From Lentisphaeria bacterium (lineage in GTDB: Bacteria > Verrucomicrobiota > Lentisphaeria > JABSQK01 > JAWLHB01), in NCBI GenBank assembly GCA_041690595.1, contig JAWLHB010000027.1:35729-99728 (forward strand): a stretch of DNA of 64,000 bases, given 5' to 3'. The position numbers and the translations under genes are program-made. The stretch's first letter is position 1; each line of letters opens with the position of its first letter. The notes below the pieces were generated by a model. It was given only the letters and a program-made list of their open reading frames with translations, ran no database searches and was not told where the DNA came from. Of this stretch, positions 9,650 to 50,990 are shown piece after piece.

Positions 9650-9949
9650 TCATGCCACCGGGAGTTGCCAGATGATAGTGCCGCTTCGGCGGCAACGATG
9701 ATACACGTCTCGGAGTTCACTTATCTCGCTCTTTCGCAGACTGGTTCCAAAGTGCCGGACAAGACCGTCGCAGACAATCTTTCCCCTGAAGGGAAGAAGA
9801 CAAGTGTCGACGACCGAAAATTCCTTGACCAGTCGATCCAGCGGATTCGTCAACTCCATTACGGCGTAGAATCTCCTGTCCTCGAAGTATAGCATGGCGG
9901 AATGATCCTTGTAGCACTTCAAGAAGAAGTCTTGAGGGTTCAGTAGCAT
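9650..9949 (-). CDS. Orphan hypothetical protein in a low-GC island
   Basis: Track ORF 9650..10132, probable start MLLNPQDFF (9949), ~99 aa. Local GC is visibly lower than the flanks. No recognisable domain. Confidence 0.3.
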   Translation of the reverse strand: MLLNPQDFFLKCYKDHSAMLYFEDRRFYAVMELTNPLDRLVKEFSVVDTCLLPFRGKIVCDGLVRHFGTSLRKSEISELRDVYHRCRRSGTIIWQLPVA

Positions 9950-10227
9950 CAGCGCACATCTCTTCCAGGGATCTATCTTTTGGCTGGGCGAAAGGGCCTT
10001 ACCGTCGTTGCCAGCATGATAGTACGGGAATCCGGCGGCGTCAATGCGGGACAAGCAAGAGTCCCCTCGGCAGTTCCCGGTCGGCGGGACGTGCCGGGTT
10101 CTTGGCGGCACACGGACGAACAAGACTGGCACGGACGGACACTGGAGCGGGGGAGCAGTGAAGCGAAAGTGGAGTGCCGTCAGTTGGAACTACGTGCCGC
10201 CTGAGGCCAGCTTGTTCAAAGGCTGGT

Positions 10228-11274
10228 TCATCCGGCCATCTGAGCGTGTGTCCAGCGAAGCAGCTCCTCGGTCTTCTCCCAACTCATGCATTCGTCGGTG
10301 ATGGAGATCCCGTACTTCAGCTCGCTGGGATTCTTCAGCTCCTGGCTGCCTTCATGAATGTTGCTTTCGAGCATGACGCCGATGATGGAGCTTTGCCCTT
10401 GGATGCGCTGGGCGATGACGCTTCGCAGCACCTTCTCCTGATTCTGGTGCTTCTTGCCCGAGTTCGCATGGCTGCAGTCGACCATGATGGTTGGTTCGAA
10501 GCTGCTGGCTTCCAGCTCCTTCATGACGTTGGCAATGCTTTCGGGGTCGTAATTGGGGCCGGTAGAGCGTCCGCCGCGGAGGACGAGGTGTCCCCACGGG
10601 TTGCCGTTGGTGCGAACCACGCAGGTGGTGCCGTCGTTGTCGATGCCCAGGAAGCAGTGGGGGTGACGGGCGGATTCCATGGCATCGAGCGCCACCTTCA
10701 GGTTACCATCGGTGCTGTTCTTGAAGCCGACGGGCATGGAGAGTCCACTGGCCAGCTCGCGGTGGGTTTGCGATTCGGTGGTGCGGGCGCCGATGGCGGA
10801 CCAGCTGACAAGATCGGCGGTGTATTGGGGTGAGATGGGGTCGAGCATCTCGGAGGCGACGGGCAGTCCCATGCCGACGACGTCCAGCAGGATGCCGCGG
10901 GCGAGGGGCAGACCGGCGGTCATGTCTTCGGAGCCGTCGAGGTTGGGATCGAAGAGGAGTCCCTTCCAGCCGATGATGGTGCGGGGTTTCTCGAAGTAGA
11001 CGCGCATGAAGATGGACAGGCGATCCTGCAGCTCCGTGCGCAGCTGGGCGAGGCGGCCGGCGTATTCCATGGCGGCCTTGCGGCAGTGAATCGAGCAGGG
11101 GCCGACGACGACCATCAGCCTTTTGTCCTTCTTGCTGAGGATCCGCATCACATCCTCGCGTCCCTGCAGAACGACCTCGAGATGAGCTTCGGTCGCAGGC
11201 TGTTCAGATTTCAAGAGGGCCGGAGATTTCAATGGGGAAAACTCCCTGACGTGTATGTCCTGTACTGGTTTCAT
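10228..11274 (-). CDS. 3-deoxy-7-phosphoheptulonate (DAHP) synthase, class I-alpha (AroF/G/H family)
   Basis: Near-collinear to E. coli AroG: [20 protein letters not shown](T/I)[27 protein letters not shown](S/G)[13 protein letters not shown]. Start taken at MKPVQ (GGAG RBS 7 nt upstream). The track's upstream ATG 11289 is also possible. Confidence 0.95.
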
Positions 11275-11310
11275 CCTGAAACTCCGCATGTGGCTTTTAG
11301 GGAAAACGCA

Positions 11311-11337
11311 AAAAGCCCCTGGGATTCAGGGGCTTTT
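11311..11337 (-). terminator. Intrinsic-terminator-like hairpin (AAAAGCCCCUG-AAUCC-CAGGGGCUUUUU on the minus-strand transcript) 37 nt upstream of the DAHP synthase start codon; putative attenuator terminator
   Basis: Perfect GC-rich stem plus U-run read on the minus strand. Lies between the leader ORF and aroG. Confidence 0.55.
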
Positions 11338-11375
11338 GAGAGTGTCATGCTTAACCGATCGTCAGCAGGCAGCAG

Positions 11376-11444
11376 TCATTCGCCCCGTCCTGTAAAGGGG
11401 GCAAAAAACCAATAATAAAAGGCTGCGGTGTGACGGTCGATCAT
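11376..11444 (-). CDS. Putative attenuator leader peptide MIDRHTAAFYYWFFAPFTGRGE (22 aa, 7 aromatic residues)
   Basis: Hand-translated from ATG at 11444 to TGA at 11376-11378. Codons UUU UAU UAU UGG UUU UUU GCC CCC UUU. Shorter than the track's 60-aa cutoff. Confidence 0.55.
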   Translation of the reverse strand: MIDRHTAAFYYWFFAPFTGRGE

Positions 11445-11612
11445 GACAAATCCAGACTTTGGCCGTGATAGGGCCTGCTGTGAAAAATTAACGCGGTTAG
11501 TATACGCAGGCTTTTCGGCGAATGCAAGCACCTGCGAAAGAGAAGTGTGCAGCGATTGCGGAAGGAGGTGGCGAGGCTATGTTGAAGGGACAACCACGGA
11601 GAGGGAAGAGCT

Positions 11613-12728
11613 ATGACACCACGGGCACGGATTGCGGCAGTCTGGGCGGGGCAGGAGGTGGACAGGGTACCGATCGAGATCGGCATCCATGCGGCGGTGC
11701 GCGAGCATCCGCGGGCGCGGGAGCTGTGCGCCTTGGTGGATGCGCATGCGGACAACTTCACGAGCGTGCCCGGGCCGGAGTATGGCTTTCTGGGGCTGCC
11801 GGCGACGCAGCGTCGGGAGGTGGTCGAAGAATCCCCGGCGGGGGTGCGCAAACGGACGGTGGTGGACACGGGCGTCGGCGAGTTTGTCGCCGTGACCTGG
11901 CATCCGGCGGACAATCCGGACTATCATTGGGAAGAGCGCTACCTGCGGAGCATTGACGACCTGCGGCGGGTGAATGCATGCCCGCGCCCGCCGCTGAGCT
12001 GGGACGCGCCGGGGCAGACGCAGCGGCTCGCGGAGATCGGCGAGAGCGCGTATCCTCTGGTGGGGCTGTTTCACCCCCTCGGCACTCTGGTCCGGCAGGC
12101 GGATATGGAGGAGGTTTACGCCTGGCTGGCGACGGAAGGGGCGGAGGTGCATCGCTATCTCGCGGCGGCGAACGAGCAACTGATCGCTGCCATCGAGGGT
12201 ATGGCCGCGGCGGGGATGCACTGCGAGTTCATGACGTGGGCGCACGAGATGCTGATAGCGCCATGGCTGGGCGTGCGGCAGTGGGACGAGTTCGTGGCAC
12301 CGTACGATCGCGAGCTGATCGCGGCGATCCATCGTGTTGGCGGTCGCATCCGCATCCATTGCCATGGCGCGGTGTCGACCTATCTGGAGCGCTTTCTGGA
12401 GCTGGGCGTCGATTCCATGGAGCCGCTTGAGCTGCCACCCTACGGCGATATCGACCTGGCCGACGCGAAGCGGCGAATCGGCGAACGGATGCTGCTGTCG
12501 GGCGGTCTGAACAGCCAGAACTGGGTACATGCGTCAGCGGATCAGGTACGCGAGGAGGTGAAGAGCGCCATCCGCCAGATGGCGAAGGGAGGCCGCTTCA
12601 CGCTCAAGCCAAGTGGCGCCGGCCCGCTCACGCGCCTCATCGCCATGTCCCGAGAGGCTGAAGAGCGCGATCTCGACAATTTTCTCGTCTACATGCAGAC
12701 CGCGCTTGAGTTCGGCCGCTACGGCTGA
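11613..12728 (+). CDS. Uroporphyrinogen-decarboxylase (URO-D)/MtaA-like family protein
   Basis: 371 aa. Overall URO-D fold signatures (DRVPIE..., C-terminal TIM-barrel-like region). Function in this context unknown. Confidence 0.65.
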   Translation: MTPRARIAAVWAGQEVDRVPIEIGIHAAVREHPRARELCALVDAHADNFTSVPGPEYGFLGLPATQRREVVEESPAGVRKRTVVDTGVGEFVAVTWHPADNPDYHWEERYLRSIDDLRRVNACPRPPLSWDAPGQTQRLAEIGESAYPLVGLFHPLGTLVRQADMEEVYAWLATEGAEVHRYLAAANEQLIAAIEGMAAAGMHCEFMTWAHEMLIAPWLGVRQWDEFVAPYDRELIAAIHRVGGRIRIHCHGAVSTYLERFLELGVDSMEPLELPPYGDIDLADAKRRIGERMLLSGGLNSQNWVHASADQVREEVKSAIRQMAKGGRFTLKPSGAGPLTRLIAMSREAEERDLDNFLVYMQTALEFGRYG

Positions 12729-12796: not shown

Positions 12797-14851
12797 TTGA
12801 TCATGGCTGAACGGGGAGGTGCAATGCGCACGCCGATGTTTTCTCGCATACTGCATGGGGGCGACTACAATCCGGAACAGTGGCCGGAGGCGGTATGGCT
12901 GGAAGATGTGGCGCTGATGAAAGAGGCGCACTGTCAGACAATGAGTGTCGGGATCTTTTCCTGGGCGGCTCTGGAGCGGGCGGATGGCGAGTATACCTTC
13001 GAGTGGCTGGACCGGGTGATGAATCTGCTGCACGCGAACGGCATCTCGGTGGTGCTGGCGACGCCGTCGGCGGCCCATCCGGCGTGGCTCTCGGCGTCGC
13101 ATCCGGAGGTTCTGCGCTGCCGACATGATCGGGTGCGTGAGGAGCATCGGGCGCGGGTGAATTATTGCCTGACGTCACGGGTATACCGGCGCAAGAGCGC
13201 GGCGATGGCGGAGCAGTTGGCGAGGCGGTATGGCAGTCATCCGGCGCTGATCCTCTGGCATGTGTCGAACGAGTACCACGGTGAGTGCCACTGCGAGCTG
13301 TGTCAATCGGCGTTTCAGGCATGGCTGCGGGAGCGATACGGTTCGCTCGATCAGTTGAATGCGGCGTGGGGGATGCGGGTGTGGAGCCATACGGTGAGCG
13401 CGTGGACGCAGATACGTTCTCCGGCCCCCTGGCCTCACGGGCAGTGGTGCAATCTGGCGCTGAAGCTGGATTGGAAGCGCTTCACGAATGACCAGCATCT
13501 TGCCTGCTATCTCACGGAAGCGGAGGTGCTGCGGCGGATCACGCCGGAGATACCGCTGACGACCAACATGCACCAGCTCTGCACCGGTTGGCTGCACTGG
13601 CGCGCCTTCGCGCCACATGTCGATGTCGCTTCCTGGGACAGCTATCCGGTGGAGTACTTCGAGAGCGGCGACTGGCGGCAGGCGGCGCCGGCAGCGTTCC
13701 GACACGACTTCATGCGTTCGCTCAAGCGGCAGCCGTTTCTGTTGATGGAGAGCAATCCGGGCTGGCAGCGCGGACGGCGGCAGAAGCGGCCTGGGATGCA
13801 TCGGCTGGCCTCTTTGCAGGCGCTGGCGCATGGATCGGAGAGTGTGCAGTATTTTCAGTGGCGGAACTGCCGCTCGCAGGTGGAGAAGTATCACGGGGCG
13901 GTGGTGGACCATGACGGTACCTCGGCGCCGCGGGTATTTCGGGAGGTGGCTGAACTGGGGGGCGAGCTGGAGCAGCTCGTGGCCATTCGCGGCGCGATGC
14001 CACAGCCAAAGGTGGCCGTGATCTTCGATGAGGAGAATCACTGGGCGCTGAGCCATTCGCCGGCCATGCGGGGGGAGGGGGACAGCATCTATCTGGACGT
14101 CTGCCTGGAGCACTACCGCTGCTTCTGGCAGCGGGGGATCGCGGTGGACGTGGTGGCGTCGACCGCGGATCTGTCGGGTTACCGGCTGGTTGTGGCGCCG
14201 TTGCTCTACATGGTGCTTCCGGGGGTTGCCGAGCAGCTTGGTGCCTATGTCGAGGCGGGAGGGATCCTGGTGATCAGTTGCTGGAGCGGTTACGTGGATC
14301 AGCACGACACGGCCTTCGCCGGCGGGTTTCCGGGTCCGCTGCGACATATGGCGGGGCTCTGGTCAGAGGAGATCGATGGCCTGGTGGCGGAGAGCAGCCA
14401 GAGCTTCGGGATGAGGGGATTGGGCATGAGCGGCAGCTTCTCGGCGCGCCGTTTCTGCGATGTCTGCCACTTGGACGATGCCGAGGTGCTGGCGGTTTAT
14501 GAAGATGATTACTATGCGGGGCGCCCCGCGGTCACGCGCAAGAGAAGCGGCAGCGGCTGGTGCTACTATCTGGCGACGCTGCCGGACGAGTCCTTCCTGA
14601 CGCTCTTCCACGGGCAGTTGGCGACGCAGTTGGAGCTGCCGCGCAGTTGGCCGGGTGAGCTTCCGGAGGGCCTTATTGCCCAGGCACGGGGCGAGTACAT
14701 CTTCCTCCTCAACTTCACGAGCAATCCGGCTACTGTTTCCGCTGATGGCCGAGCGTATGTGGAGGTAGCGGGCAACATTGCTTGCGGCGAGCAGATCGAG
14801 TTGCCGCCATTCGGCGCGGTCGTCATCCACTTGCTGGAAGGATCGTCATGA
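12797..14851 (+). CDS. Beta-galactosidase, glycoside hydrolase family 42
   Basis: ILHGGDYNPEQWPE, WHVSNEY, and trimerisation/C-terminal domains typical of GH42. TTG start per track (ATG at MRTPM also possible). Stop overlaps the next gene by ATGA. Confidence 0.9.
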   Translation: MIMAERGGAMRTPMFSRILHGGDYNPEQWPEAVWLEDVALMKEAHCQTMSVGIFSWAALERADGEYTFEWLDRVMNLLHANGISVVLATPSAAHPAWLSASHPEVLRCRHDRVREEHRARVNYCLTSRVYRRKSAAMAEQLARRYGSHPALILWHVSNEYHGECHCELCQSAFQAWLRERYGSLDQLNAAWGMRVWSHTVSAWTQIRSPAPWPHGQWCNLALKLDWKRFTNDQHLACYLTEAEVLRRITPEIPLTTNMHQLCTGWLHWRAFAPHVDVASWDSYPVEYFESGDWRQAAPAAFRHDFMRSLKRQPFLLMESNPGWQRGRRQKRPGMHRLASLQALAHGSESVQYFQWRNCRSQVEKYHGAVVDHDGTSAPRVFREVAELGGELEQLVAIRGAMPQPKVAVIFDEENHWALSHSPAMRGEGDSIYLDVCLEHYRCFWQRGIAVDVVASTADLSGYRLVVAPLLYMVLPGVAEQLGAYVEAGGILVISCWSGYVDQHDTAFAGGFPGPLRHMAGLWSEEIDGLVAESSQSFGMRGLGMSGSFSARRFCDVCHLDDAEVLAVYEDDYYAGRPAVTRKRSGSGWCYYLATLPDESFLTLFHGQLATQLELPRSWPGELPEGLIAQARGEYIFLLNFTSNPATVSADGRAYVEVAGNIACGEQIELPPFGAVVIHLLEGSS

Positions 14852-24400: not shown

Positions 24401-24809
24401 GCCATTGGCCGAGGGGGGTAGCGATGGCCTTTTCCAGCTTGGTATTGCCGACCTTGTCGCGGCCCTGTGCATCGATGAAGCGGAGAGCCCAGGAATGGCC
24501 GTCGCTCAGGCGCTTTGCCCAGAGGGTGATCTTGCGGGCATCGCCGGGGATGAGGGCGGAAACGGGGGCGAAGGTGATGTACTGGAAGTCCTTGCCGGAA
24601 TAGGTGGCGGTAAGCTGAAGGGAGGCGGCTTGGGAGGTTGCCTCCGGAGGCCGTTCATCGCTACCGGCAATCTGGCCGTCGGCGGTGTGCCAGTCACTGA
24701 GCTGCCAGTTGTTCGTCTTGGGATCACCGAGGTCGCGGGAGACCAACTCCGCCGCAGCCATGGCGGATGAGCCCAGAAGCAGGATCAGGATGTGTAGAGC
24801 ATGTGACAT
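21498..24809 (-). CDS. Secreted clan GH-A glycoside hydrolase (GH5/GH39-like) with C-terminal CBM9-like module
   Basis: Signal peptide. WEIDNEYD (acid/base-like NE) and AWITEFGWD (nucleophile-like). C-terminal DGSFDDW...LYVGVNVED resembles CBM9. Confidence 0.55.
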   Translation of the reverse strand: MSHALHILILLLGSSAMAAAELVSRDLGDPKTNNWQLSDWHTADGQIAGSDERPPEATSQAASLQLTATYSGKDFQYITFAPVSALIPGDARKITLWAKRLSDGHSWALRFIDAQGRDKVGNTKLEKAIATPLGQWQQISFDLPDEWERPIAFGGIVAHNWSRKQEKADAALLLHDLRLHTDIAAIGDVNQLVSLKVESGFERNIFVAGDALAYRVGIDSWLGKPLQGLMRSTILDMNDATIATTEVPFRIEESAALHLPLQVDAFGVYRANLSVTLDGGIAYSGSSRFAYLPAPHQLTVEQKLRSPWGINIHGGKEGVAYNGIARTGYTWVRDYAYAFDWMVRARGTDGNYAAWPWYPRMNAKLEESGLMLLACLMHSISHPVKEGILAPTQQWKRDLLHILWAFPQYTAWEIDNEYDLHYRRDEEQRNWTSYDDFHSLFGKTVNFVDNTDWAVENGTAGIHPERVRQSIARGAFDEIDVVNAHFYCGTAPPEIAIRNANTGGGEGPPALVWDLMRELAQAADSDGRDRQAWITEFGWDTLAVHIVTEAEQAAYLQRGNLLGLQAGLDKMFWYWNLDTEGEPNTFFDGCGIFDQKREPKPVVAAQAAMSHFLLLPEPLGTFDFGPNSMGHLFRDRGRLVACAFQVDKDKPSVPPRFASGKLHDHVANPLTAAPALLTLAPLWAVDLDENDPIVRQTSFDIATRRFLRGTAGDATTVQLRVRNRRATAISASYTVEAPDTWQVSPAEGSLTAPPGESRLFPIHVSLPANAQATEDDLVILVTDGDATKRLDVRFIFMSAAELDVQPLSAAPGEELLQLQVRNNSLLARSFRLRLDLPASWQTANREMTIDEIQPGQTATLQLPVTWSLDWQPEESAHVVILSMDGAELDRKGIRPGALPLPAANSIALDGSFDDWPTGSTIPGWALGQVGPAPPAQLRLAHAPDGLYVGVNVEDADGRAPSPRQFWTANVLELFTDTANDKASRTAYAPTDHQLWVCPILTENRVYMGRWKRDNEIPETQYDIEGLRSAAIRTASGYAMEFFIPASLLHGFETAGERRIGLNLNLSIPGSGGRSGQTSEIYWPLSKTGAMPRQPHTWGSLYLR

Positions 24810-27112
24810 GATAGACTCCGTTTCGATTGGTCGTGATCCTGCCTGGTGCGAACGCCGATGCGCATGCCGTCCAGCAAGAGAGAGTAGGGTATGGAATCGC
24901 CGTTGTCGATGTGCAGATCGGCATCTACTGTCGCGGTGTCGTCAAAAAGGAAGGTCAGGCGGTTGCCGCGAACGGTTCGAACGGCTCGGCACTGAGGCCG
25001 AAAGGCGCTGGGCAGGCAGGCTTGCACCCGCAGGCCATGGAAGTCGGGGACGATGCTCAGGATGCCGTCCCAAAGGACCTTATTGAACCAGGCGGCGCTG
25101 CCTGTGCGCCACGGGAACATGGCACGCCCGGGATGCGCCGACGCGGTGCCCTCGAAAGCATTGGTGAGGCTGAATGGCTCCAGTTGAGAGCGTTGTGGAG
25201 GGTTGGCCGGATTGGATGGGAGAATCCGGCAAAGCAGATCGAAGGCGGCATCGGGCAGTGCGGCACAGGTGAGAGCGTAGGCATGAAAAAGGCTGGCATG
25301 AACGTAGTTGGCGCCGTTCTCGACGCGGCCCGGCTGGTCGGCGGAGATGCGGCCAAGTCGCTCGTCGTAGGCGGTGAAGGGGGGATCCAGAAGAAGTGGG
25401 CCGAAGGGGGTCTCCAGCCGCCGCGCCACCGTTTGCAGGATGATGCGGCGCCGGGCATCGTCGGCAATTCCGGCGATGATGGCCCATGACTGGGGATTGA
25501 GGAAGATGCGATCGTCGCGGTCGTCGCGACTGCCGATGCGGGTGCCATCGTCGGTGATGGCGCGAATATAGCGGTCGCCGTCGAAAGCGACGGTATCGAT
25601 GCGTTGAGTCAAGGCGTCCGCCTGGTGTGCGTAGATGCCGATGGCGGGATCATCCAGATGGTTGAGCAGGTCGACGAGCTGGCGCAGCGCCCAGACCGTG
25701 GCCATGGAGGTCCAGACGGATTCGCCGCGGCCGGCGCGGTCGACACCGTTGAGGGCGTCATTCCAGTCGCCGTAGCCCATGCGGCAGAGGCCGTTGGGGC
25801 CGCAATGCGAGGCGAGGAAATCCATGGTGCGGCGGGCATGATCGAGGATGGTGGCGCTACCGCCGTCGAGCCATGGGTGGCATTCGCGCAGGAAGTTCAG
25901 ATCGCCGGTCTCGCGGAGATAGTTGACGAGGCAATTGACGAACCAGATGCCGCCGTCGAGGTAGAGCGTGTCATCGATGGCGGCCCATTTGCGTACGGTA
26001 TGGCCGTCGCGGTAGATGTGGCAGGCGGCCTCAAGAAGTCGTTTTCTGACGAGGGAAGGATCGACCATGCGCCAGGCATCGGCATCCTGCATGGCATCGC
26101 GGAATCCCATTGCCCATCCGCGGTTCCATTCGGCATTATAGTGGTGCTGGTGGCGGACCCATATGGTGGCGTAGCGGTCGAAGTCGTGGTTGCCGGAGGC
26201 GAGGTCTGTTGCGCGAAAGAGTGGCGCGCGGCGGCGGGCATGAGCCGCGATGGCCTGGGCATAGAGGTCGTGCCGGCCATACTCTCGGCCACGGGTGCAG
26301 GCATGATCGAAGGTGGTGGCGGAGTAGATCTGGGCGTGGAGGGTCTCGCAGGCGGCGGACGGCAAGTTGAGTCGATAGGGGACGGCGAAGACCGGTGGGC
26401 TGCGATCGGGCATGCTGTTGTCGAAGCGGTCGAGGTGAAGGGCGGCAGGCGACCGCAGGCAACTGTAGGATCGAAGAAAGGCATCGCGGTCAAGTTCGAA
26501 GCGGGTGATGGGCCAGTTGCTGTGCCAGGCTGCGGCGAGGCAGTCGGGCACCCGGGTGGGCGCTTCATTGCAGACGTAGAGGCAGTTGGCGGCGGCATCG
26601 AAGGCGCCTGTGAAGCGGTTGGCATTGCCGGCGCGGCAGGTAAGATCCAGTTCATAGAAGGGAACGACCAGAAGACGGCGAGTCCTGTCGCAGCGGTTGG
26701 TGACGTTGACGCGCCAGATTTCGCAGGCGTCGCACTCATGGACGGTGGTTTCCCAGGTAACGTGGATACCCTGGCGCTCTCCCGCGATGATGGTGTAGTT
26801 GAGTCCATGCCGGCATTGATAGCTGTCGAGATCGGCGTTGACGGGAAACCAGGCAGGGGACCAGGTGTCGCCACTCTCCAGATCACGGATGTAGAGCGCA
26901 CGGTTGCCGGACCAGTTGTAGAGGGAAAAGCGTCCTTGGTGATCGCGCTCGTAGACGATGGCGGTGCCGTGGTTAGTCACCTGCACGGCGAGGTGATCGT
27001 TCCACAGGCGATTCTCCCAGGGGCGTGGCGTCAGCGGCGTCGTGATGACGTATTCATGCCGACTATCGTCGAAGAATCCGTAGGTGTCATTATGGATGTA
27101 TGGGGCGTTCAT
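24785..27112 (-). CDS. (alpha/alpha)6-barrel glycoside hydrolase/phosphorylase, GH94/GH36-superfamily-like
   Basis: ~775 aa cytoplasmic. MGYGDWNDALNG motif resembles the catalytic DW(N)D of GH94-type enzymes. Start at MNAPYIH. Overlaps neighbouring genes on both sides. Confidence 0.45.
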   Translation of the reverse strand: MNAPYIHNDTYGFFDDSRHEYVITTPLTPRPWENRLWNDHLAVQVTNHGTAIVYERDHQGRFSLYNWSGNRALYIRDLESGDTWSPAWFPVNADLDSYQCRHGLNYTIIAGERQGIHVTWETTVHECDACEIWRVNVTNRCDRTRRLLVVPFYELDLTCRAGNANRFTGAFDAAANCLYVCNEAPTRVPDCLAAAWHSNWPITRFELDRDAFLRSYSCLRSPAALHLDRFDNSMPDRSPPVFAVPYRLNLPSAACETLHAQIYSATTFDHACTRGREYGRHDLYAQAIAAHARRRAPLFRATDLASGNHDFDRYATIWVRHQHHYNAEWNRGWAMGFRDAMQDADAWRMVDPSLVRKRLLEAACHIYRDGHTVRKWAAIDDTLYLDGGIWFVNCLVNYLRETGDLNFLRECHPWLDGGSATILDHARRTMDFLASHCGPNGLCRMGYGDWNDALNGVDRAGRGESVWTSMATVWALRQLVDLLNHLDDPAIGIYAHQADALTQRIDTVAFDGDRYIRAITDDGTRIGSRDDRDDRIFLNPQSWAIIAGIADDARRRIILQTVARRLETPFGPLLLDPPFTAYDERLGRISADQPGRVENGANYVHASLFHAYALTCAALPDAAFDLLCRILPSNPANPPQRSQLEPFSLTNAFEGTASAHPGRAMFPWRTGSAAWFNKVLWDGILSIVPDFHGLRVQACLPSAFRPQCRAVRTVRGNRLTFLFDDTATVDADLHIDNGDSIPYSLLLDGMRIGVRTRQDHDQSKRSLSCHMLYTS

Positions 27113-29499
27113 CGGGTGGCGATCGTCGTGGTGAGGGTTTGGACGATGGGGATGCATTCACCGCAGCAGACCAGCGTGCCGGAGACGCCGTGGGGGAGCG
27201 TGACGGCTACCTCCACGTGCTGAGGCGACAGGTGTTCCCAGGCGACGGTAACCTGTCCCTGTGGGATGCGGCAGGTGTGCGAAAAGCTGGGGAATGCCGC
27301 GAAGGCGGGTTCGAGGCGCAGCGTTGCGTAGCCGCATGTGGTTGGCTGAAGGCCGATGATGCCGCGGCGGAGAAGGTAGGGGAGTGGGGCGCTCCATGCA
27401 TGATTCAGGGAGTCATGGTTCTCGCCGCCAAAGGCTTCCCAGGTGGAGGTGGCGCCGCGCTCGAGCATGGGTATCCAGTGGGGGCGGATGGTTTCCACCG
27501 CAAGGGGAAGCAGGCCGAGGTGGCTGAGCGCTTCGCAGATGAAGAAGTAGGTGTACGGGGTCCCCTGGGAGATCCATGGATAACGCTCGGTATCGACGAG
27601 GCGCCGCATGGCTTCATGAGCGTCGGCGCCGGTAAGGACGCCGGTCATCACGCCCATGCAATTGACGATCTGGGAGACGTTGACGTGGTGCTGCTCTTCG
27701 TGCCAGGCATCGGCAAGGAGCCCCTGGTCGGGGATGAAGAAGCGCTCTCGCAGGCGGTGCTGCATGGCCTGGATCTCTTCGGTGAGGTTGCTCTGCCGTC
27801 CGGTCTGGCGGTAGAGGACGTCGAGTGCCTGGAGGGCTTGCAGATAGAAGAGGTTGATGCCGCAGTTGTAGTCGCTGCGGTCGATGCCGGTGGTGGTGCG
27901 GGGATGCCAGCCGAGGCCGGGATGGTCGAGGAAGAGCAAGGGGGCGCGAAAGCCGCTGGTTTCCGGCGCAGGCTGACCGAGCTTGATGAATCCGCTGTCG
28001 TCGATGAGCCGGCGGAAATCCTCGACAATTGCCTCGGCGGTGGCGAGGTTACGGTCGACGACAGCCCGGTCGCCGGTGTACGCATGATATCGGCGGAGGA
28101 AGTCGACGGCGATAAGGCAATAATCGTGGAGCGGGGCGCCGAGGCCGTAGATGCTGGCGTTGAGGGTGCCGAGCGCTGCATACTCTTCGGTCATGGCATC
28201 GCACATCTGGCCAAGATGGGCGAAGTTGCCGGTGAGATGACCGACGGAATCGAGTATCCACAGGTTGTCTCCCCAATACGCGCCTTGCTCGCGGGTGTTG
28301 CAGTCGTAGGAGAGGGCCTGGGTATTGAGCATCAGGCTACGGCGGGAGATGGCGTAGATCATCTCCATGACGGGATCGGCCGCGAAGCTGTCGGTGAAGT
28401 CGAGATCGGCGCGGCAATGATGGGTGGTGACACGGTGTACGATTGCCGTGCCCTCCAGATCCTTGACGGTCAGGTAGATGTAGCGATGCCCATTGAAGTG
28501 GTAGAAGCGGCATCGGTTGAGCCCGGGTTGAAGGTGAAACCGGGCAAAATAGAGGCCGCCGTTGCGCCAGGTATTGGGGCGCCCGTGACGCAGGGCCTCG
28601 GCGAGGCTCAGGTCGAGGGTGCAGGGAGAGTCGACCGTGATCTGGAAGCTGATGTCGCCGGCGCACATGCGCTGCATGTCGTAGAGGATGCCATAGCCTG
28701 GGTCGCCGCGCCTCCGGCGCAGGTGCAGGAGGCCGCCGCGGGTCATCTGGTAACGCTCCTGATCCCAGGCGGGGCGCACATGTTCGTGGTCGAGGCGTAC
28801 GGGGGTGTCCTGCAGGTTGTAGACCTCGCCGTTGAGCCGAAAGATGGCGATGGGCAGGGGAGCATCCTCGGTGCGCCAGCGGAGCGGGGGGAGTTCGCGG
28901 GCGCGAAACTGGATCCGGCCTGCTTCGACCAGCGTTGGGGTGTGGCCGGTTGCGAGGATGGCGTCGACTGGCGGCGGTTCCCCGAGGGCGTAGTCCTCGC
29001 CCGCCAGCGCGCACAGGACTGGGAAGCTCTCGTCGGCAACGCTGATGCACTCGACGTGTTCGATCGCCCAGTTCTTGCGAGGCGTTTGTGGCTCCCACGC
29101 GGAGAGGCGCCAGCATGTCCAATCCAAGTCGGTGACGATGGGGGCTGCGTCGCCGATGGCGAGAGTGGCGATGAGACCGGGTCGATCGGCGGTGTTGTAT
29201 TTGACGGTGACGCCGACGAAGTGGGCGAGGATGAAGAGCGTGTTGCGTCCCTCGGTGAGCCATGGGCCAAGGTCATACCTGTCGACGCGGCAGATAGGCT
29301 TGCGGAAAGGGACGGGGCCGGCATTGACAAAACGGCCGTTTACGTAGAGCTTGTACTTGGTATCGGCGAAGATCGATAGCGTGACAGGCGCCGCGCCGGG
29401 CGGCAGGGAGAATTGGCGGGCAAAGCCGACGTAGCTGTTGGGCTCAGCATCGCCAAGCCAGATCCATTGCGCCTGCTCGGGCATGATGGTGTCGTGCAT
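27109..29499 (-). CDS. Alpha-L-rhamnosidase, glycoside hydrolase family 78
   Basis: N-terminal MPEQAQWIWLGD plus size and six-hairpin-like C-terminal region typical of GH78. No signal peptide. Confidence 0.6.
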   Translation of the reverse strand: MHDTIMPEQAQWIWLGDAEPNSYVGFARQFSLPPGAAPVTLSIFADTKYKLYVNGRFVNAGPVPFRKPICRVDRYDLGPWLTEGRNTLFILAHFVGVTVKYNTADRPGLIATLAIGDAAPIVTDLDWTCWRLSAWEPQTPRKNWAIEHVECISVADESFPVLCALAGEDYALGEPPPVDAILATGHTPTLVEAGRIQFRARELPPLRWRTEDAPLPIAIFRLNGEVYNLQDTPVRLDHEHVRPAWDQERYQMTRGGLLHLRRRRGDPGYGILYDMQRMCAGDISFQITVDSPCTLDLSLAEALRHGRPNTWRNGGLYFARFHLQPGLNRCRFYHFNGHRYIYLTVKDLEGTAIVHRVTTHHCRADLDFTDSFAADPVMEMIYAISRRSLMLNTQALSYDCNTREQGAYWGDNLWILDSVGHLTGNFAHLGQMCDAMTEEYAALGTLNASIYGLGAPLHDYCLIAVDFLRRYHAYTGDRAVVDRNLATAEAIVEDFRRLIDDSGFIKLGQPAPETSGFRAPLLFLDHPGLGWHPRTTTGIDRSDYNCGINLFYLQALQALDVLYRQTGRQSNLTEEIQAMQHRLRERFFIPDQGLLADAWHEEQHHVNVSQIVNCMGVMTGVLTGADAHEAMRRLVDTERYPWISQGTPYTYFFICEALSHLGLLPLAVETIRPHWIPMLERGATSTWEAFGGENHDSLNHAWSAPLPYLLRRGIIGLQPTTCGYATLRLEPAFAAFPSFSHTCRIPQGQVTVAWEHLSPQHVEVAVTLPHGVSGTLVCCGECIPIVQTLTTTIATR

Positions 29500-29520: not shown

Positions 29521-30492
29521 TTAGTCCGCCCACGCGGCGATTGGCGTTGCGGTCAGGATCTTGTGCCAGCCGTCCGGCCCCGATGCGTCGGGCAAGAGGT
29601 CGTCGCGCAGTTCGACGATCTGGTCCATGACGATGGATTCGCCGGAGGCGACGGTCCGTAACGGGCCGTTGTGCTCGATTTCGCCAAAAGGCTGCTGCTG
29701 CCAGTCGTTACCGCCGCGCCACTTGAAGATGGTCACGGTGGCGCCGCTTTCGGGGAAGGTGGCATCGCGCGGCACGTCGACCATGGAGCGGATGACGAGG
29801 TTGTCCTTTACGTAGGCGACCCATCCGGCGGTACTGTCAGTACCGATCTTGAACCAGTTTTGCTCTGGAGGCACGGCATAGTCGACCGTCAGCGCATGCT
29901 TGCCGTAGTCGACGCATGGCTGCACGATGGAGAGGCCAGGGAAGTGAATGAGTCTGCGGGCGAAGCTCTGGTGGTTGTAGGGGAGGATGCCAATGCCGCT
30001 GTCCGGCACGGCCAGAATCGCCCAGGCGGCAAGGAGCTGAGGCTCCTCGCGAAGGTTGCGAAAGCCGTGCCGCAGCCGGAGGAGGGGCAGGGTGTCGTGC
30101 AGGGTCACCTCCATGGTCAACCGCAGGCCTGACTTGTCAATGTCCGGCGCTGCCAGTAGCTGGATGGAGCGTTCGCCGAGCCAGGTTGCCTCGGCCGGTT
30201 GCAGGGCAGGGGACTGGGAATGATCGGTGTCGCTTTCAGGTTGATGAATGCGGCTGCGCATACCGATGAGGTCAAAATCGTCCGTCACGAAGAGGGGCGA
30301 ATGGCCGCCCCTGAGGCGGAAAGCCAGAACTCTGGGATAAGGCATCGCGCAGACGAAAGCCTCCGCCCGTACATTGCGCAGCCACCAGCCATCGTGGTTG
30401 GCGTAAGTTTCGGCTTCCTGGGCATTCACCGTGATCATCGTCAGCATGAGCAGGTAGGTGAATCTACTGAATGTGGAGCGAGCGAAGCTCAT
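29521..30492 (-). CDS. Secreted hypothetical protein
   Basis: 323 aa. Signal peptide MSFARSTFSRFTYLLMLTMITVNAQEA. Overlaps the upstream gene by 29 nt. Confidence 0.5.
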   Translation of the reverse strand: MSFARSTFSRFTYLLMLTMITVNAQEAETYANHDGWWLRNVRAEAFVCAMPYPRVLAFRLRGGHSPLFVTDDFDLIGMRSRIHQPESDTDHSQSPALQPAEATWLGERSIQLLAAPDIDKSGLRLTMEVTLHDTLPLLRLRHGFRNLREEPQLLAAWAILAVPDSGIGILPYNHQSFARRLIHFPGLSIVQPCVDYGKHALTVDYAVPPEQNWFKIGTDSTAGWVAYVKDNLVIRSMVDVPRDATFPESGATVTIFKWRGGNDWQQQPFGEIEHNGPLRTVASGESIVMDQIVELRDDLLPDASGPDGWHKILTATPIAAWAD

Positions 30493-36733: not shown

Positions 36734-38194
36734 CTATTCGCTGATGACAGTATTCGACTTACCCAGGCTCGCCAACTCGGCATCGACTGGTGCCAACTCG
36801 CCAAGAGCGGACTTGTCCGCCAGGAGGATCACGGAGTCGTAGATGGGGATCTGCTTGAAGGTGATGGCGCCGCCGGTGCGCTGGAAGCTGCCGGCCGGTA
36901 CTTCATAGACGCCACCGGTGCGCAGATCCACATAAACAGGCTCCTTCAGGGTGAGGCCTGAGAGCTGGACGGTGGTGACCAGAAATGTGTCTTCGTCTTT
37001 CGGCTTGTCGACGCCCGACCAGATGGCGACAATGGCGGCGCCGTCCGGCTTTGTAAAGGCAAAGGCTGAGACTCTGTTGTTCGGGGAGAGCTTGATGCCG
37101 AGGTTCCTGACACGAGTCAGCGTATTGTCGAAGATGGCGGTCACATTCTGGACGGCGTAATAGGCTTGTTTGGGACGTTCGACGGTCTGGTCATCCGCGC
37201 TCTTGAGCAGCCCCTTGTGGTTCCAGCCGTCGGCGTACTTCATATCGATGATGGCAAAGCAGGAGGAGGGGATGTCGCCGCCGAGATCGCCGAGCATGCG
37301 TCGGGCGTACCATTTCGCCTGGGTCTTCTCGCTCCATGGCTGATGCGAGAGGGCGAAACGATTGCTCTCGACGGAGGGGGCGCCATTCTCTCCCTGGAAG
37401 ATCCCGATGCTCTTGGAGTAGGCGGCAATGACCTTGCGCAGTTCGCCCACGCGATGGTAGCCGAGATCTGGGTTGGCGGAGTAGGGGTGGTAGGTCATGG
37501 CGCTGACCAGATGCAGCTTACGGCGGCGCTTGAGGTTCTCGAGGAGAGCCTTGGCATAATCGACCTCGAAGGAACTTCCGGATGCGATGTAGATGACCGC
37601 TTGCGGCTGCAAGGCCCGTATCGTTTCGGCGGTCTGCACTACGAGGTTGGCGTAGGGCGGAACACCGTTGATGCCGCCTCGGGGTTCGTTCCATATCTCC
37701 CACTCATGGATGTATTTGCCGTAGCGCGTCACGTAGGCGCTGACGTACGCCTTCCAGGCCGCCATGGCTTCGGGCGAGGTGATCATGCCGTTGCCCAGAT
37801 CCGCGCCGCCGCCCCCTGGATATAGGTGGTTGCCGTAGCACAGGCATACCCACGGGCGCACGGATTGCTCGACCATGTCCAGCACGATCTCGTCCATCCA
37901 CGCCCAGTCGTAAACGCCGCGCACCTTCTCGGTCTTGGCCCAGCCGGATTGAATGCGGGCGCGCTTGATGCCCAGCGGGGCAAGGTACTCCCGCCAGTTC
38001 CGGTAGATGGTGTAGTCGCGGTCCATGGTTTCGGCTCCGATGGACCAGTTCGACGAGACGATTTCGCTGGTATTCCGAGGCTGAATCTGGCCGATCTGCC
38101 GATAGGGGATAGCGGGCGCTTCCGGTGTAGCCCCGGTCGCCAGTGTGGCGATTGCAAGTATCGCGTAGACAGTGAGCTTCCCAACTGCGTTCAT
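36734..38194 (-). CDS. Secreted clan GH-A glycoside hydrolase (GH5/GH30/GH39-like)
   Basis: Signal peptide. EWEIWNEP (acid/base NEP) and IFQGENGAPS (nucleophile-like). Confidence 0.55.
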   Translation of the reverse strand: MNAVGKLTVYAILAIATLATGATPEAPAIPYRQIGQIQPRNTSEIVSSNWSIGAETMDRDYTIYRNWREYLAPLGIKRARIQSGWAKTEKVRGVYDWAWMDEIVLDMVEQSVRPWVCLCYGNHLYPGGGGADLGNGMITSPEAMAAWKAYVSAYVTRYGKYIHEWEIWNEPRGGINGVPPYANLVVQTAETIRALQPQAVIYIASGSSFEVDYAKALLENLKRRRKLHLVSAMTYHPYSANPDLGYHRVGELRKVIAAYSKSIGIFQGENGAPSVESNRFALSHQPWSEKTQAKWYARRMLGDLGGDIPSSCFAIIDMKYADGWNHKGLLKSADDQTVERPKQAYYAVQNVTAIFDNTLTRVRNLGIKLSPNNRVSAFAFTKPDGAAIVAIWSGVDKPKDEDTFLVTTVQLSGLTLKEPVYVDLRTGGVYEVPAGSFQRTGGAITFKQIPIYDSVILLADKSALGELAPVDAELASLGKSNTVISE

Positions 38195-46738: not shown

Positions 46739-46974
46739 AATCCCTTTCCTTATGCAAGAATTTCCCCTATCCATACTTCCCGCCCCCTCCTATTTCCACT
46801 CCCCCCAGCACTTTTGATCTTTCCCCGGGAACGCCATTCGCCCGAGCGGACGGCAAAAGAAGATCTTTGCGACAGGGAAGACACCCCACGCTTCACCCGG
46901 GCGGCCTGATCCGTCCGATCCGCCCGATCCGTCCGATCACCAGCGCCTTCAGGCCGTCGCCGGCACACACCAAC

Positions 46975-47886: not shown

Positions 47887-48573
47887 CTAAAGGTCCAAAG
47901 TACCGCCTGCACGCTCAATACAATCTGGAGAGTCATTCCGGACGTTGTTGACTTTGGTTGACACTGGGTAAAAAGAGAGCCGCTGTTGGTAAGCTTTGAG
48001 CACATGGAGAGGGGGGGAGGGCATCGTCTGGTTGACACTTAGCCAGATTTCGCGCTGCTCCGGCTCCACAATCGCGGGCATGCGATCGTGAAGGTGGGCG
48101 ACATGGGGAGATGCCGCAGTCGTGATGATCGTATAGGAGTGTAGCATTACTTCGCCGCCTGGCTCGCGCCATGTGTCCCAAAGGCCCGCCAGCGTCATCA
48201 AGGGAGCGTCAGCAAGGTGGATGAAGTGCGGAATCTTCTCCTTACCGAGCCGCTGCCACTCGAAGTAGCCGTGGGCAATAACCAGGCAGCGGCGCCGATC
48301 GACAAGGTGGCGGAACGAGGGCTTCTCCGTGAGCGTCTCGCCGCGGGCGTTGATCAACCGGTTGCCGATGCCACGCTCCTTGGCCCAGAAGGGGACCAAC
48401 CCCCATTGCATGAGGCGGATAACCCTGCCGCCGCCATCGTCAAGCAAAACAGGCGTGATCGAGGTGGGTGGGATGTTGAAGCCGGGCAGATAGTCGTCGC
48501 GATCGGGCCACTGGGCGTCGAAGTAGTCGGCGATATCGTCGGCGGGTTGGCTCAGGGAGAATCGGCCGCACAT
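47887..48573 (-). CDS. yedK: SOS-response-associated peptidase (SRAP/YedK, abasic-site processing protein)
   Basis: Starts MCGRF (catalytic Cys2). LMQWGLVPFWAK and HGYFEW are typical SRAP motifs. Confidence 0.85.
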   Translation of the reverse strand: MCGRFSLSQPADDIADYFDAQWPDRDDYLPGFNIPPTSITPVLLDDGGGRVIRLMQWGLVPFWAKERGIGNRLINARGETLTEKPSFRHLVDRRRCLVIAHGYFEWQRLGKEKIPHFIHLADAPLMTLAGLWDTWREPGGEVMLHSYTIITTAASPHVAHLHDRMPAIVEPEQREIWLSVNQTMPSPPLHVLKAYQQRLSFYPVSTKVNNVRNDSPDCIERAGGTLDL

Positions 48574-50864: not shown

Positions 50865-50990
50865 AGGTTTCGGTTCCGCCGCGGTGGCTGTCAAGATGGG
50901 GGGTGGATGCATGAAGATACCTTAAGTCGCATGACTTGCGAAGAGGTGAGGGCGAAAATGGCATCTCGCCGGCGAGCCCCTGAGCGGCAG

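Follow-up and report, generated by a model that had tools for sequence, protein, structure and literature searches.

Features of the DAHP synthase locus

On the minus strand of the window, by which we mean the whole 64-kb stretch of DNA that was analyzed, a gene for a class-I DAHP synthase is preceded by a putative promoter, a short open reading frame (ORF) rich in aromatic codons, and an intrinsic terminator. The features are as follows, with the basis for each.

11499-11527, minus strand: putative sigma70-type promoter, -35 TTGCAT (11527-11522), 17-nt spacer, -10 TATACT (11504-11499); sequence reading and relatives
11422-11453, minus strand: 5' strand of a long-range closing helix, including the leader start codon; minimum free energy (MFE) fold
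11376-11444, minus strand: leader ORF, 22 codons plus TGA, predicted peptide MIDRHTAAFYYWFFAPFTGRGE; sequence reading
11394-11420, minus strand: candidate regulatory codon run F Y Y W F F A P F, codons 9-17; sequence reading
11397-11402, minus strand: region 1, GCCCCC (codons 15-16); forms the core of the 11410-11394 strand, the 5' side of the 1:2 hairpin
11382-11386, minus strand: region 2, GGGGC (within codons 20-21); folds under a stalled ribosome, and relatives
11339-11373, minus strand: post-stop spacer, 3' strand of the closing helix; MFE and masked folds
11303-11337, minus strand: intrinsic terminator, stem 11337-11327 with 11321-11311, loop AAUCC, then UGCGUUUU; terminator scan, fold and relatives
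10228-11274, minus strand: class-I (AroF/G/H-type) DAHP synthase, 348 aa, putative regulated gene; NCBIfam TIGR00034

The enzyme scores 477 bits against TIGR00034 (aroFGH) and 503 bits against PRK12755, and the identical 348-residue protein is P0001 in the NCBI-derived collection. The original prediction had named the gene aroG. The class-I assignment stands on TIGR00034, but the name does not, as the protein falls below both the AroG and the AroH equivalog cut-offs; its sequence does not allow a choice of AroG over AroF or AroH. Its start codon is the ATG at 11274, with a Shine-Dalgarno sequence, GGAG, at 11285-11282, and GGAGTTTCAGGATGA at this gene is kept in two related loci, L081 and L085. 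The gene upstream of the leader unit is divergently oriented, so the terminator hairpin cannot belong to that neighbor. For a small ORF at 9650-10132, 3' of the enzyme gene, Pfam gave no match, and the ORF at the equivalent place in L081 is not similar to it; it is not proposed as an operon partner. The 64-kb window contains no rRNA, tRNA or marker genes. Among PtsP homologs the best named matches, at about 50% identity, are MAGs of Planctomycetaceae and Phycisphaerae together with Desulfobacterales.

Minus-strand reading confirms the leader ORF as first described, with an ATG at 11444-11442, 22 sense codons, and a TGA at 11378-11376 that lies 38 nt from the terminator hairpin. Codons 9-17 read UUU UAU UAU UGG UUU UUU GCC CCC UUU, seven of the nine being aromatic, again as described. 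This stretch is the only one of its kind among some 128,000 nine-codon windows in the six frames of this 62% GC DNA, where runner-up short ORFs reach at most five aromatic codons per nine. Given the combined Phe, Tyr, and Trp frequency in the window's coding sequence (8.35%), the binomial probability of at least seven in nine is 9e-7 per position. The run uses TTT for all four of its Phe codons and TAT for its two Tyr codons, while TTT accounts for 27% of Phe codons and TAT for 34% of Tyr codons in the genes of the window; from that usage the product for the observed choices is about 6e-4. The Shine-Dalgarno-like GGA of the leader, at -10 to -8, is weak in the window; good ones occur in L097, L103, L017, and L024.

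The putative promoter would place the transcript start near 11492, about 48 nt ahead of the leader ORF. An identical TTGCAT-N17-TATACT occurs in L081, and TTGAC(G/A)-N17-TAxxxT lies 36-54 nt 5' of the leader ATG in nine of the ten members of the family described below. The terminator hairpin, AAAAGCCCCUG-AAUCC-CAGGGGCUUUU (11337-11311), is followed by U and then GCGUUUU. Its 11-bp stem contains six G-C pairs, and the isolated hairpin has a predicted energy of -17.6 kcal/mol. Together with its tail (11337-11303) it is the sole terminator-like site found by terminator scan in 10900-12000, and reading, scan, and fold agree with its earlier description as a perfect intrinsic-terminator hairpin. 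The distance to the gene, previously given as 37 nt, was wrong; the gap from the hairpin and U-run to the ATG is 35-36 nt. We refer to the 5' arm, GCCCCUG, as region 3 and to the 3' arm, CAGGGGC, as region 4.

Alternative pairings and ribosome-masked folds

The leader region folds at -64 kcal/mol, with z = -4.7 relative to dinucleotide shuffles. The MFE structure contains a 1:2 helix of 15 bp (11410-11394 with 11390-11374; -11.9 kcal/mol as an isolated hairpin). In predicted folds region 2 has two alternative partners, region 1 and the terminator 5' arm; pairing with the arm gives the antiterminator. The mutually exclusive 1:2, 2:3, and 3:4 pairings proposed in the original prediction do appear in the folds, though 2:3 in the window amounts to five contiguous base pairs (GGGGC:GCCCC).

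A further helix, very strong and overlooked in the original prediction, lies at the start of the leader ORF. In the MFE structure 11453-11422 pairs with 11373-11339 over 27 bp. The energy of this closing duplex is -28.9 kcal/mol, against -14.0 +/- 3.2 kcal/mol for shuffled spacers, none of 300 of which did as well. The helix is significant in the window, L103, and L105, and not in L081 or L097. On ribosome-free RNA the post-stop spacer is predicted to belong to the closing helix, and on RNA with a stalled ribosome to form the antiterminator's inner helices.

Terminator and antiterminator were compared by folding, as suggested earlier as a check. Full-length RNA at equilibrium always favors the terminator (P 0.93-0.98), and the antiterminator was never seen in equilibrium folds of the full leader, appearing solely in truncated, ribosome-masked folds. 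With the terminator favored at equilibrium, the model requires kinetic control like that of trp. The switch test used transcripts ending before the terminator 3' arm, with the upstream ORF occupied, and scored the probability that the terminator 5' arm is paired. For the window this probability is 0.81-0.89 with the A site at codons 11-16, no higher than 0.45 before those codons, and no higher than 0.51 after them. For each of the other nine members it falls at the end of that member's own aromatic run, sharply in most (from 0.9 to 0.1-0.4) and more shallowly in L100, L101, and L105.

In eight of the ten members the MFE partner of the terminator 5' arm is exactly C(A/G)GGGG(C/U), at P 0.86-1.0. 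Of 60 shuffled spacers, 51-60 do worse than that pairing, and in seven of those eight members at least 58 do. The window has the weakest 2:3 duplex of the family, -13.0 kcal/mol compared to -17.9 to -23.4 kcal/mol in relatives. A single 28-nt footprint on the window leaves the probability that the arm is paired at just 0.34-0.6; a clear switch in its masked folds needs occupancy of the 5' part of the ORF as well, which is an assumption.

Conservation of the leader unit

Relatives whose DNA was compared are P0002, P0004, P0005, P0006, P0008, P0009, P0010, P0014, and P0020. The DAHP synthases of the nine closest relatives are 59-74% identical to those of the window's group. The same layout is kept in 9/9 closest relatives with enough upstream DNA, so that the equivalent aromatic micro-ORFs whose presence upstream of homologs was a stated check are found in every one. 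The shared order is a sigma70-like promoter, an aromatic-rich ORF, a GGGG segment, a terminator, and the DAHP synthase gene. Leader ORFs of the relatives have 21-28 codons in frame, with six to eight aromatic codons in nine, and carry the C(A/G)GGGG(C/U) segment at the 3' end. Their terminators, GCCCCUG(A)-loop-(U)CAGGGGC-U6-8, lie 21-38 nt 5' of the gene. In a tenth relative, P0003, the end of the contig cuts the leader, and the terminator is present in the right place.

Aromatic codons vary across the family alignment solely by synonymous change or by exchange of Phe and Tyr. L097 and L101 differ in five of nine aromatic codon columns by synonymous changes only, with no non-synonymous change, while the window, L085, and L081 show three Phe-Tyr interchanges and keep the run at codons 9-17. 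At the RNA level the region 2 GGGG and the terminator core are invariant in the ten members, and flanks and loops vary. Because the paired segments are nearly invariant, helix covariation is scarce; there is one compensatory pair, at the base of the terminator stem (A-U, G-U, G-C). RNAalifold returns just the terminator and three pairs of the 1:2 hairpin, missing the alternative helices because they are invariant or cannot be aligned between subgroups.

A single Trp codon is present in eight of ten members and absent from L097 and L101. In those eight it would sit at the critical last positions that permit antitermination.

A covariance model built from the family scores its members at 73-139 bits, matches that hold by construction. 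Broader searches define the limits of the family. An enzyme scan of the genome collection gave 80 labelled loci at 51-61% identity, most of them without the leader, which indicates an element specific to a clade rather than general to the enzyme; in the closest of the 80, L001 (Methylomirabilota), the leader is missing and the gene begins about 75 nt after the upstream ORF. Screening by a count of at least five aromatic codons in nine was unspecific, with nine forward loci against seven reverse-complement controls, and ORF, terminator, and position were therefore used as criteria. A metagenome scan with the leader-core pattern TGGTWYTTYGYCCCCTTYAN{4,9}GGGG gave 11 matches, none beside a DAHP synthase gene and none a leader, all of them repeats or inside genes. 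The same scan did not recover even the contig of L085, and so that collection adds no members.

A probable leader-peptide attenuator

The leader unit is, in our judgment, probably a ribosome-mediated transcription attenuator in which a leader peptide controls the first committed enzyme of aromatic amino acid synthesis. An ORF in the 5' UTR, a cluster of cognate codons, and an intervening intrinsic terminator are each found in the window, and an antiterminator whose formation depends on ribosome position is found in silico, weakly in the window with a single footprint. The ribosome-stalling architecture originally proposed is supported by conservation, promoter position, codon constraint, and masked folds. 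As a prediction from sequence and modeling it is well supported, and every sequence-level expectation open to in silico testing was borne out.

Under this model, transcription would start at the sigma70-type promoter ahead of the 22-codon ORF. With ample charged Phe-, Tyr-, and Trp-tRNA, the ribosome would reach the stop codon and cover the GGGGC of region 2, the GCCCCUG/CAGGGGC terminator would form 35 nt before the DAHP synthase start, and transcription would stop. In the absence of leader translation, pairing would join the beginning of the ORF to the post-stop spacer over 27 bp and region 1 to region 2, again leaving the terminator arm free and leading to termination. When aromatic aminoacyl-tRNA is scarce, the ribosome would stall with its A site in codons 11-16, covering region 1, and the stalled and queued ribosomes together would also mask the 5' strand of that 27-bp helix. 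Region 2 and the spacer could then capture the terminator 5' arm before the 3' arm is made, allowing read-through into the gene. We infer translation of the ORF, the transcript start, termination, read-through, and the amino acids sensed. The codon content agrees with the proposal that a mixed Phe/Tyr/Trp leader serves an enzyme feeding all three pathways, while the part of that proposal concerning which amino acids are sensed is likewise a deduction from the codons. Sensing of Trp is uncertain, given one Trp codon that L097 and L101 lack.

Comparison with known systems

The E. coli leaders pheL-pheA and trpL-trpEDCBA operate by 1:2, 2:3, and 3:4 logic, with a terminator that is thermodynamically favored and an antiterminator that is kinetically trapped. 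The window unit resembles them in having cognate codons just 5' of region 1, a stop near region 2, and then an intrinsic terminator. It differs in that pheL and trpL regulate pheA and trpE through runs of a single amino acid, whereas the window has a mixed Phe/Tyr/Trp run before a DAHP synthase gene. The Rfam model Phe_leader (RF01859) scores 17.7 bits against a gathering threshold of 55 (E = 5.4), aligning essentially to the terminator only. No T-box matched at E <= 10 in 10900-12000 and none reached gathering elsewhere, nor did any Rfam family reach gathering in the whole window or in 12 relatives. Multivalent attenuators are found in enterobacteria at ilvGMEDA (Leu, Val, and Ile codons) and thr (Thr and Ile codons), where starvation for any end product relieves termination. 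Like them, the window leader covers every end product of a branched pathway in its codons; those systems serve other pathways with other RNA families, and multivalency in the window is deduced from codon content alone.

The nearest functional precedent is aroR-aroF of Corynebacterium glutamicum, for which Mentz et al. (2013) described an attenuator transcript with a Phe-Tyr-Phe leader (PMC4046766). The work of Neshat et al. (2014, J Biotechnol 190:55), as reported in PMC11802643 and PMC7356990, describes ribosome-mediated attenuation with read-through increased under Phe limitation; according to the account in PMC11802643, Tyr availability had no effect in spite of the Tyr codon. One paper calls aroR control translational. 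Both units have a mixed aromatic leader in the 5' UTR of a gene or operon headed by DAHP synthase. As predicted, the window unit would act at the same step by the same class of mechanism, and in both cases the leader suggests a response to several aromatic amino acids. They belong to different phyla, aroR-aroF being from Actinobacteria, and aroR has three regulatory codons with none for Trp, compared to six to nine in the window family. The invariant GCCCCUG/CAGGGGC terminator of the family and the 27-bp start-codon helix of the window set it apart from aroR as the latter has been described.

Drawing on Merino's database, Song et al. 2005 (PMC1173090) tabulated putative attenuators upstream of aroAI-alpha_Y > tyrA in Vibrio and of aroAI-beta > tyrA in Thermus. 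These too are predicted terminator/antiterminator pairs 5' of operons led by DAHP synthase; by their description they are distinct, being computational listings from other lineages, with tyrA co-transcribed and no leader peptides described in that paper.

Our scans also returned Phe/Tyr-rich leaders before DAHP synthase genes in four Desulfobacterota-type MAG loci (L002, L017, L021, and L024). They resemble the window family in having leaders of 25-28 codons with six to nine Phe or Tyr codons in nine, a terminator immediately after, and the same target. Their terminator core (AAGCCGCGG...) differs, their runs lack Trp codons, and they stand farther from the gene (107-218 nt); L017 and L021 also have a second hairpin. 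The covariance model of the window family detects L017 alone among them, and weakly (28.6 bits, E = 0.002). By sequence, the Desulfobacterota leaders are probably an independent family.

Alternative explanations

A conditional terminator may instead be operated by a riboswitch, an RNA-binding protein (TRAP- or PyrR-like), or a tRNA (T-box-like), with the aromatic ORF incidental or a by-product of U-rich sequence. Conservation of the terminator and its competing GGGG as RNA, and a fold far more stable than shuffles, would suit such control, and candidate RNA elements sensing aromatic amino acids have been proposed before aro operons in Lactobacillales (PMC4448216). We nevertheless consider it unlikely. 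All ten members keep an uninterrupted in-frame ORF with its start and stop codons, though the N-terminal residues differ; its aromatic codons change in the constrained manner described above; and in each member the folds switch where the aromatic run ends. Apart from the alignment of Phe_leader to the terminator, no T-box or other Rfam match appeared even at E <= 10, and no conserved aptamer-like domain was seen beyond the described hairpins.

It is decidedly improbable that the leader is a nascent-peptide sensor of free amino acid, as in TnaC-like arrest, or a translational uORF, in which case W-F-F-A-P-F or F-S-G-G would matter as peptide. TnaC-type arrest peptides have conserved spacing of Trp, Asp, and Pro to the stop, act with Rho-dependent termination, and are induced by free Trp. 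Some non-aromatic residues do recur: several members have D-R close to the N terminus, group A has A/V-P-F, and G-G recurs at the C-terminal end. The single Trp codon is kept in most members. Against this, the peptide differs strongly between subgroups, and the terminal Gly codons are explained by the GGGG acting at the RNA level, with the frame shifted in the window (CGG GGC compared to GGG GGU). What follows is an intrinsic terminator and not a Rho site, and induction by excess amino acid would have the wrong sign for a biosynthetic enzyme. Over 100 nt and the terminator separate the leader stop from the DAHP synthase start, which makes translational coupling implausible.

Equally little weight goes to the promoter, ORF, and terminator being primarily an independent gene for an sRNA, a small protein or both, active in trans, with control of DAHP synthase secondary or absent. 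The promoter and strong terminator would define a transcript of about 185 nt, and there is precedent in the Sinorhizobium trp attenuator, whose RNA and peptide are reported to act in trans (PMC6614838, PMC7298713). The unit, however, lies immediately 5' of a co-oriented DAHP synthase gene in 10/10 genomes whose flanking genes differ, no second copy was found by the covariance model in the window or the other loci, and the 35 nt between terminator and gene are too short to fit a separate promoter. A role in trans is compatible with attenuation and does not exclude it.

That a chance ORF without regulatory role happens to stand beside an ordinary terminator or palindrome is scarcely credible and, judged by conservation, effectively refuted: the five-of-nine count is undiscriminating and the degenerate core pattern hit 11 unrelated metagenome sites, but the seven-of-nine stretch is unique, relatives at this divergence keep the arrangement in 9/9 cases where neutral intergenic DNA should be randomized, and the members match the covariance model, if by construction.

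Significance

The DAHP synthase genes of E. coli are textbook examples of control by repressors (TyrR, TrpR). To our knowledge, RNA-level attenuation at the DAHP synthase step has been documented experimentally only in Corynebacterium. The suggestion in the original prediction that a mixed aromatic attenuator of DAHP synthase is absent from the classical examples, and by implication new, was overstated in view of aroR-aroF (PMC4046766, PMC11802643) and the Vibrio and Thermus predictions (PMC1173090). The literature searched, which did not include Lopatovskaya et al. 2010 (Mol Biol 44:128), contained no description of the window's attenuator family. From its sequence, the leader unit very probably represents an attenuator RNA family that no database lists, yet of a well-known kind.

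A more ambitious reading is tentative, and we think it doubtful as a whole: that of an undescribed attenuator family in a poorly sampled uncultured lineage, which would integrate the charging of three aromatic tRNAs, add the 27-bp helix sequestering the start codon as a third layer, possibly act in trans like rnTrpL and peTrpL, through its peptide or its terminated RNA of about 185 nt, and be convergent with the Desulfobacterota family. If this is true, the closing helix would let only ribosomes that load co-transcriptionally relieve termination, and, with the separate Desulfobacterota family, attenuation of DAHP synthase would be a recurrent, convergently evolved solution outside model organisms.

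The attenuator reading leaves the general understanding of attenuation unchanged. It adds one conserved family of at least ten members, for which a covariance model and clear mutational predictions now exist, and whose predicted trivalent response to Phe, Tyr, and Trp is a natural switch that could serve as a biosensor. The second, unrelated family in Desulfobacterota MAGs suggests that leader-peptide attenuation at the entry point of aromatic amino acid synthesis is wider than annotated.

Anatomy of the leader region

The region upstream of the class I DAHP synthase gene encodes, on the minus strand, a promoter, a short aromatic-rich leader ORF and an intrinsic terminator. The arrangement is that of a candidate transcription attenuator.

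Features of the DAHP synthase leader region; all from the promoter to the gene start come from sequence reading
11527-11499, minus: sigma70-like promoter (-35 TTGCAT 11527-11522, 17-nt spacer, -10 TATACT 11504-11499)
promoter to leader ORF, minus: untranslated stretch of 48 nt
11444 (ATG) to 11378-11376 (TGA), minus: leader ORF of 22 codons, product MIDRHTAAFYYWFFAPFTGRGE
leader stop to hairpin, minus: spacer of 38 nt
11337-11311, minus: perfect 11-bp hairpin AAAAGCCCCUG-AAUCC-CAGGGGCUUUU, followed by U GCG UUUU
hairpin to gene, minus: 35-nt gap with GGAG at 11285-11282
11274 (ATG), minus: class I DAHP synthase, 348 residues (TIGR00034 aroFGH, 477 bits; PRK12755, 503 bits)
11613-12728, plus: URO-D/MtaA-like gene, divergent from DAHP synthase

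Reading of the minus strand confirms that the element exists as described in the original prediction, with the coordinates and sequence of leader and hairpin correct and the distance from hairpin to ATG miscounted by 1-2 nt. The hairpin is the sole terminator-like site within 10900-12000, and it cannot serve the gene at 11613-12728, because that gene is divergent. Its AAAA 5' flank and UUUUU 3' flank make the site nearly symmetrical, so that it could in principle terminate transcription on both strands; the Rfam model Phe_leader matches it weakly on both strands, at 17.7 and 17.5 bits. The DAHP synthase, identical by protein search to a protein on an NCBI record, does not reach the AroG- or AroH-specific cut-offs. 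Directly downstream, a 160-residue ORF (minus, 9650-10132) has no Pfam match and no similarity to a 149-residue ORF at the same position in L081, one of the loci fetched for comparison.

The aromatic run, with Phe, Tyr or Trp at seven of nine codons, is unique among about 128,000 nine-codon stretches in six frames of the window (62% GC). The next-best count among its 775 short ORFs is five per nine codons, and the binomial probability of at least seven in nine is 9e-7 per position, given a coding frequency of 8.35% for the three residues in the window. Folding of the 181-nt leader yields -64 kcal/mol (z = -4.7), with none of 200 shuffles equally stable. Within 11394-11420 the minor synonymous forms are used throughout, TTT for Phe (4 of 4) and TAT for Tyr (2 of 2), although TTT makes up 27% of Phe codons and TAT 34% of Tyr codons across 11 of the window's genes; the product probability from these shares is about 6e-4. 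TTT is also commoner than TTC in most leaders from relatives. Such codons could tune the sensitivity of stalling, or could keep the run U-rich and unpaired.

Conservation among relatives

The lineage of this DAHP synthase is poorly sampled, with only three relatives found by protein search at 71-74% identity (P0002-P0004) and the next at about 62%. We compared the DNA around ten relatives, nine of which have enough upstream sequence. The same promoter-ORF-terminator layout occurs in all nine. Downstream of every leader stand GCCCCUG(A)-loop-(U)CAGGGGC and a run of 6-8 U, at a distance of 21-38 nt from the gene. The tenth relative, P0003 (loci L082-L084), ends at contig edges and has the terminator at the expected place.

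Leader peptides of the nine relatives, by locus
L081: MRVVSDSLYGYWFFVPFMFGGKRLVVAC
L085: MRTQLTGRYYFWYFAPFISGGE
L097: MDHARADRYFYFGYYFFAFAESGARGRY
L101: MNRTLARRYFYFRYYFFAFGDPGVKRY
L100: MFATIIVSNFFYFYFWGYDPGGKRCA
L099: MNDRTARYFSLYFFTWKFSGG
L103: MTDRTAPYFSFYFFTWKFSGG
L105: MTDRTARYFSFYFFTWKFSGG
L106: MNDRINRYFPFYFFAWNFSGG

Together with the window, these loci form a family of ten members. A TTGxxx-N17-TAxxxT promoter lies 36-54 nt 5' of the leader ATG in nine of them; the sequence of L085 ends short. Enzymes of the window's group share 59-67% identity with those of the other groups, as against 68-95% inside groups, and the genes flanking the element differ between groups. Recent shared ancestry of the whole region therefore does not explain the non-coding conservation. 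Between L097 and L101, five of nine aromatic columns show a synonymous change only and none a non-synonymous one, while Phe and Tyr interchange at three columns in the window's group; changes of this kind are expected of translated regulatory codons. A GGGG near the end of the ORF and the terminator core are invariant. The GGGG is read as CGG GGC in the window versus GGG GGU in the relatives, a shift in codon phase which argues that nucleotides, rather than Gly residues, are under selection.

Predicted folding of the leader transcript

Free RNA from the window is predicted to fold into three elements, the terminator and the two helices listed here.

Helices predicted upstream of the terminator
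11453-11422 (including the leader AUG) with post-stop spacer 11373-11339, minus: 27-bp long-range helix
11410-11394 with 11390-11374, minus: 15-bp hairpin with core GCCCCC:GGGGC (regions 1:2)

The long-range helix covers the leader Shine-Dalgarno/AUG region and the first eight codons, would hide the leader start codon as soon as transcription has passed through the spacer, and competes topologically with the antiterminator. At -28.9 kcal/mol, versus -14.0 +/- 3.2 for shuffles, it is equaled by none of 300. Across the family it is a trend (mean z = -2.0) of unequal strength, not significant by shuffle test in L081 or L097.

Translation was represented by masking 28 nt, the footprint of a ribosome, codon by codon in transcripts ending just before the terminator 3' arm. 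With the A site at codons 11-16, a single footprint raises pairing of the terminator 5' arm from 0.20 to 0.42-0.52 in the window, from 0.6 to 0.96 in L081 and from 0.5 to 0.75 in L085. The masked structures pair GGGG(C/U) of region 2 with GCCCC(UG), closed over inner spacer helices. In stall folds of eight of the ten members, the exceptions being the window and L105, GCCCCUG has precisely C(A/G)GGGG(C/U) as its minimum-energy partner (P 0.86-1.0). Against 60 shuffled spacers this pairing is superior to 51-60, a figure that is 58 or higher in seven of these eight members. A second scheme additionally blocks the 5' portion of the ORF, as a further ribosome queued behind the first would do. In these folds the window switches cleanly: its 5' arm is paired with P 0.81-0.89 only for A-site positions at codons 11-16, with values of at most 0.45 before and at most 0.51 after. 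Pairing in the other nine members falls at the end of the aromatic run; the drop is steep in most but shallower in L100, L101 and L105. The arm is free in RNA without a ribosome, and also when the ribosome has reached the stop codon.

Since the terminator is always preferred in the complete leader at equilibrium (P 0.93-0.98), any control would have to be kinetic, as it is for trp. In the window the terminator has an energy of -17.6 kcal/mol, the 1:2 hairpin -11.9 and the 2:3 duplex -13.0, the weakest 2:3 duplex of the family compared with -17.9 to -23.4 in the relatives.

Distribution and a second leader family

R1, a covariance model built from the ten members, gives these members 73-139 bits, by construction. 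Beyond them it picks up the partial terminators of L082-L084 and, with a weak score, L017 (28.6 bits, E = 0.002); the rest of the 64-kb window and the 75 further taxonomically labelled loci yield no match. L001 (Methylomirabilota), with the closest labelled enzyme at 59-68% identity, lacks the leader.

In four Desulfobacterota-type MAG loci, class I DAHP synthase genes are preceded by Phe/Tyr leaders of another family, apparently independent of the window's family.

Loci of the second leader family
L002: 2748-2890
L017: 2546-2700
L021: 2723-2860
L024: 684-815

Each leader (example peptide MTRAGRSFFYYFYFYYSKASAWRVR) is followed by a AAGCCGCGG-type terminator, with the gene start 107-218 nt beyond it. 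L017 and L021 have an extra hairpin with a U-run further downstream.

Chance DNA-pattern matches brought in unrelated metagenome contigs with repeats of their own. L094 (10560-10860) and L095 (2170-2470), on the minus strand of these loci, hold tandem units of about 30 nt, each with the palindrome GCCCCCTTTACAAAAGGGGG; six or more of these units follow one another head to tail. The soil-metagenome contigs L088 (4085-4160), L090 and L096 share one sequence, a direct duplication of AGAGGTATTTGGCTGTGCCTCTAATGGCAGATTT just upstream of the match and unrelated to DAHP synthase.

Gene content of the window

The window encodes mostly carbohydrate use, with many glycoside hydrolases, sugar ABC permeases and LacI regulators around the element.

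Selected genes of the window
12797-14851: GH42 beta-galactosidase
24785-27157: GH94
27109-29499: rhamnosidase-like
44477-46774: melibiase-like
48552-50912: PtsP
51432-52781: ammonium transporter
within the window: two LacI-type regulators; sugar ABC permeases

The best named relatives of PtsP, at about 50% identity, come from Planctomycetaceae and Phycisphaerae MAGs and also from Desulfobacterales. Several large ORFs, such as 30464-33253 and 36734-38194, have no family match. No tRNA, rRNA or riboswitch reaches the Rfam gathering score in the 64 kb.

Relation to known attenuators

Neither the whole window nor 12 relatives contain a match at the gathering score of any Rfam family; against Phe_leader, the element earns 17.7 bits where 55 are required, aligned over the terminator only. 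Multivalent attenuator leaders are known for ilv and thr. A Trp codon is conserved in eight of ten members, inside the stretch of codons predicted to permit antitermination, so that sensing of Trp in addition to Phe and Tyr is a plausible prediction.

The concept of DAHP synthase attenuation is not new. In Corynebacterium glutamicum, aroF (DAHP synthase) is preceded by an attenuator transcript whose leader reads Phe-Tyr-Phe (PMC4046766). Read-through at this leader, named aroR, reportedly rises under Phe, not Tyr, limitation (PMC11802643, citing Neshat et al. 2014; PMC7356990). In Vibrio, putative attenuators are tabulated ahead of aroAI-alpha_Y > tyrA, and in Thermus ahead of aroAI-beta > tyrA (Song et al. 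2005, PMC1173090). We found no description of this family, or of DAHP synthase attenuators in these lineages, in literature whose coverage excludes the survey of Lopatovskaya et al. 2010.

Classical attenuation is the best-supported model for the element. Conservation and position-specific alternative folding in silico make the attenuator reading of the original prediction highly probable. The family itself is new but its kind is well known, and Corynebacterium provides a direct functional precedent.
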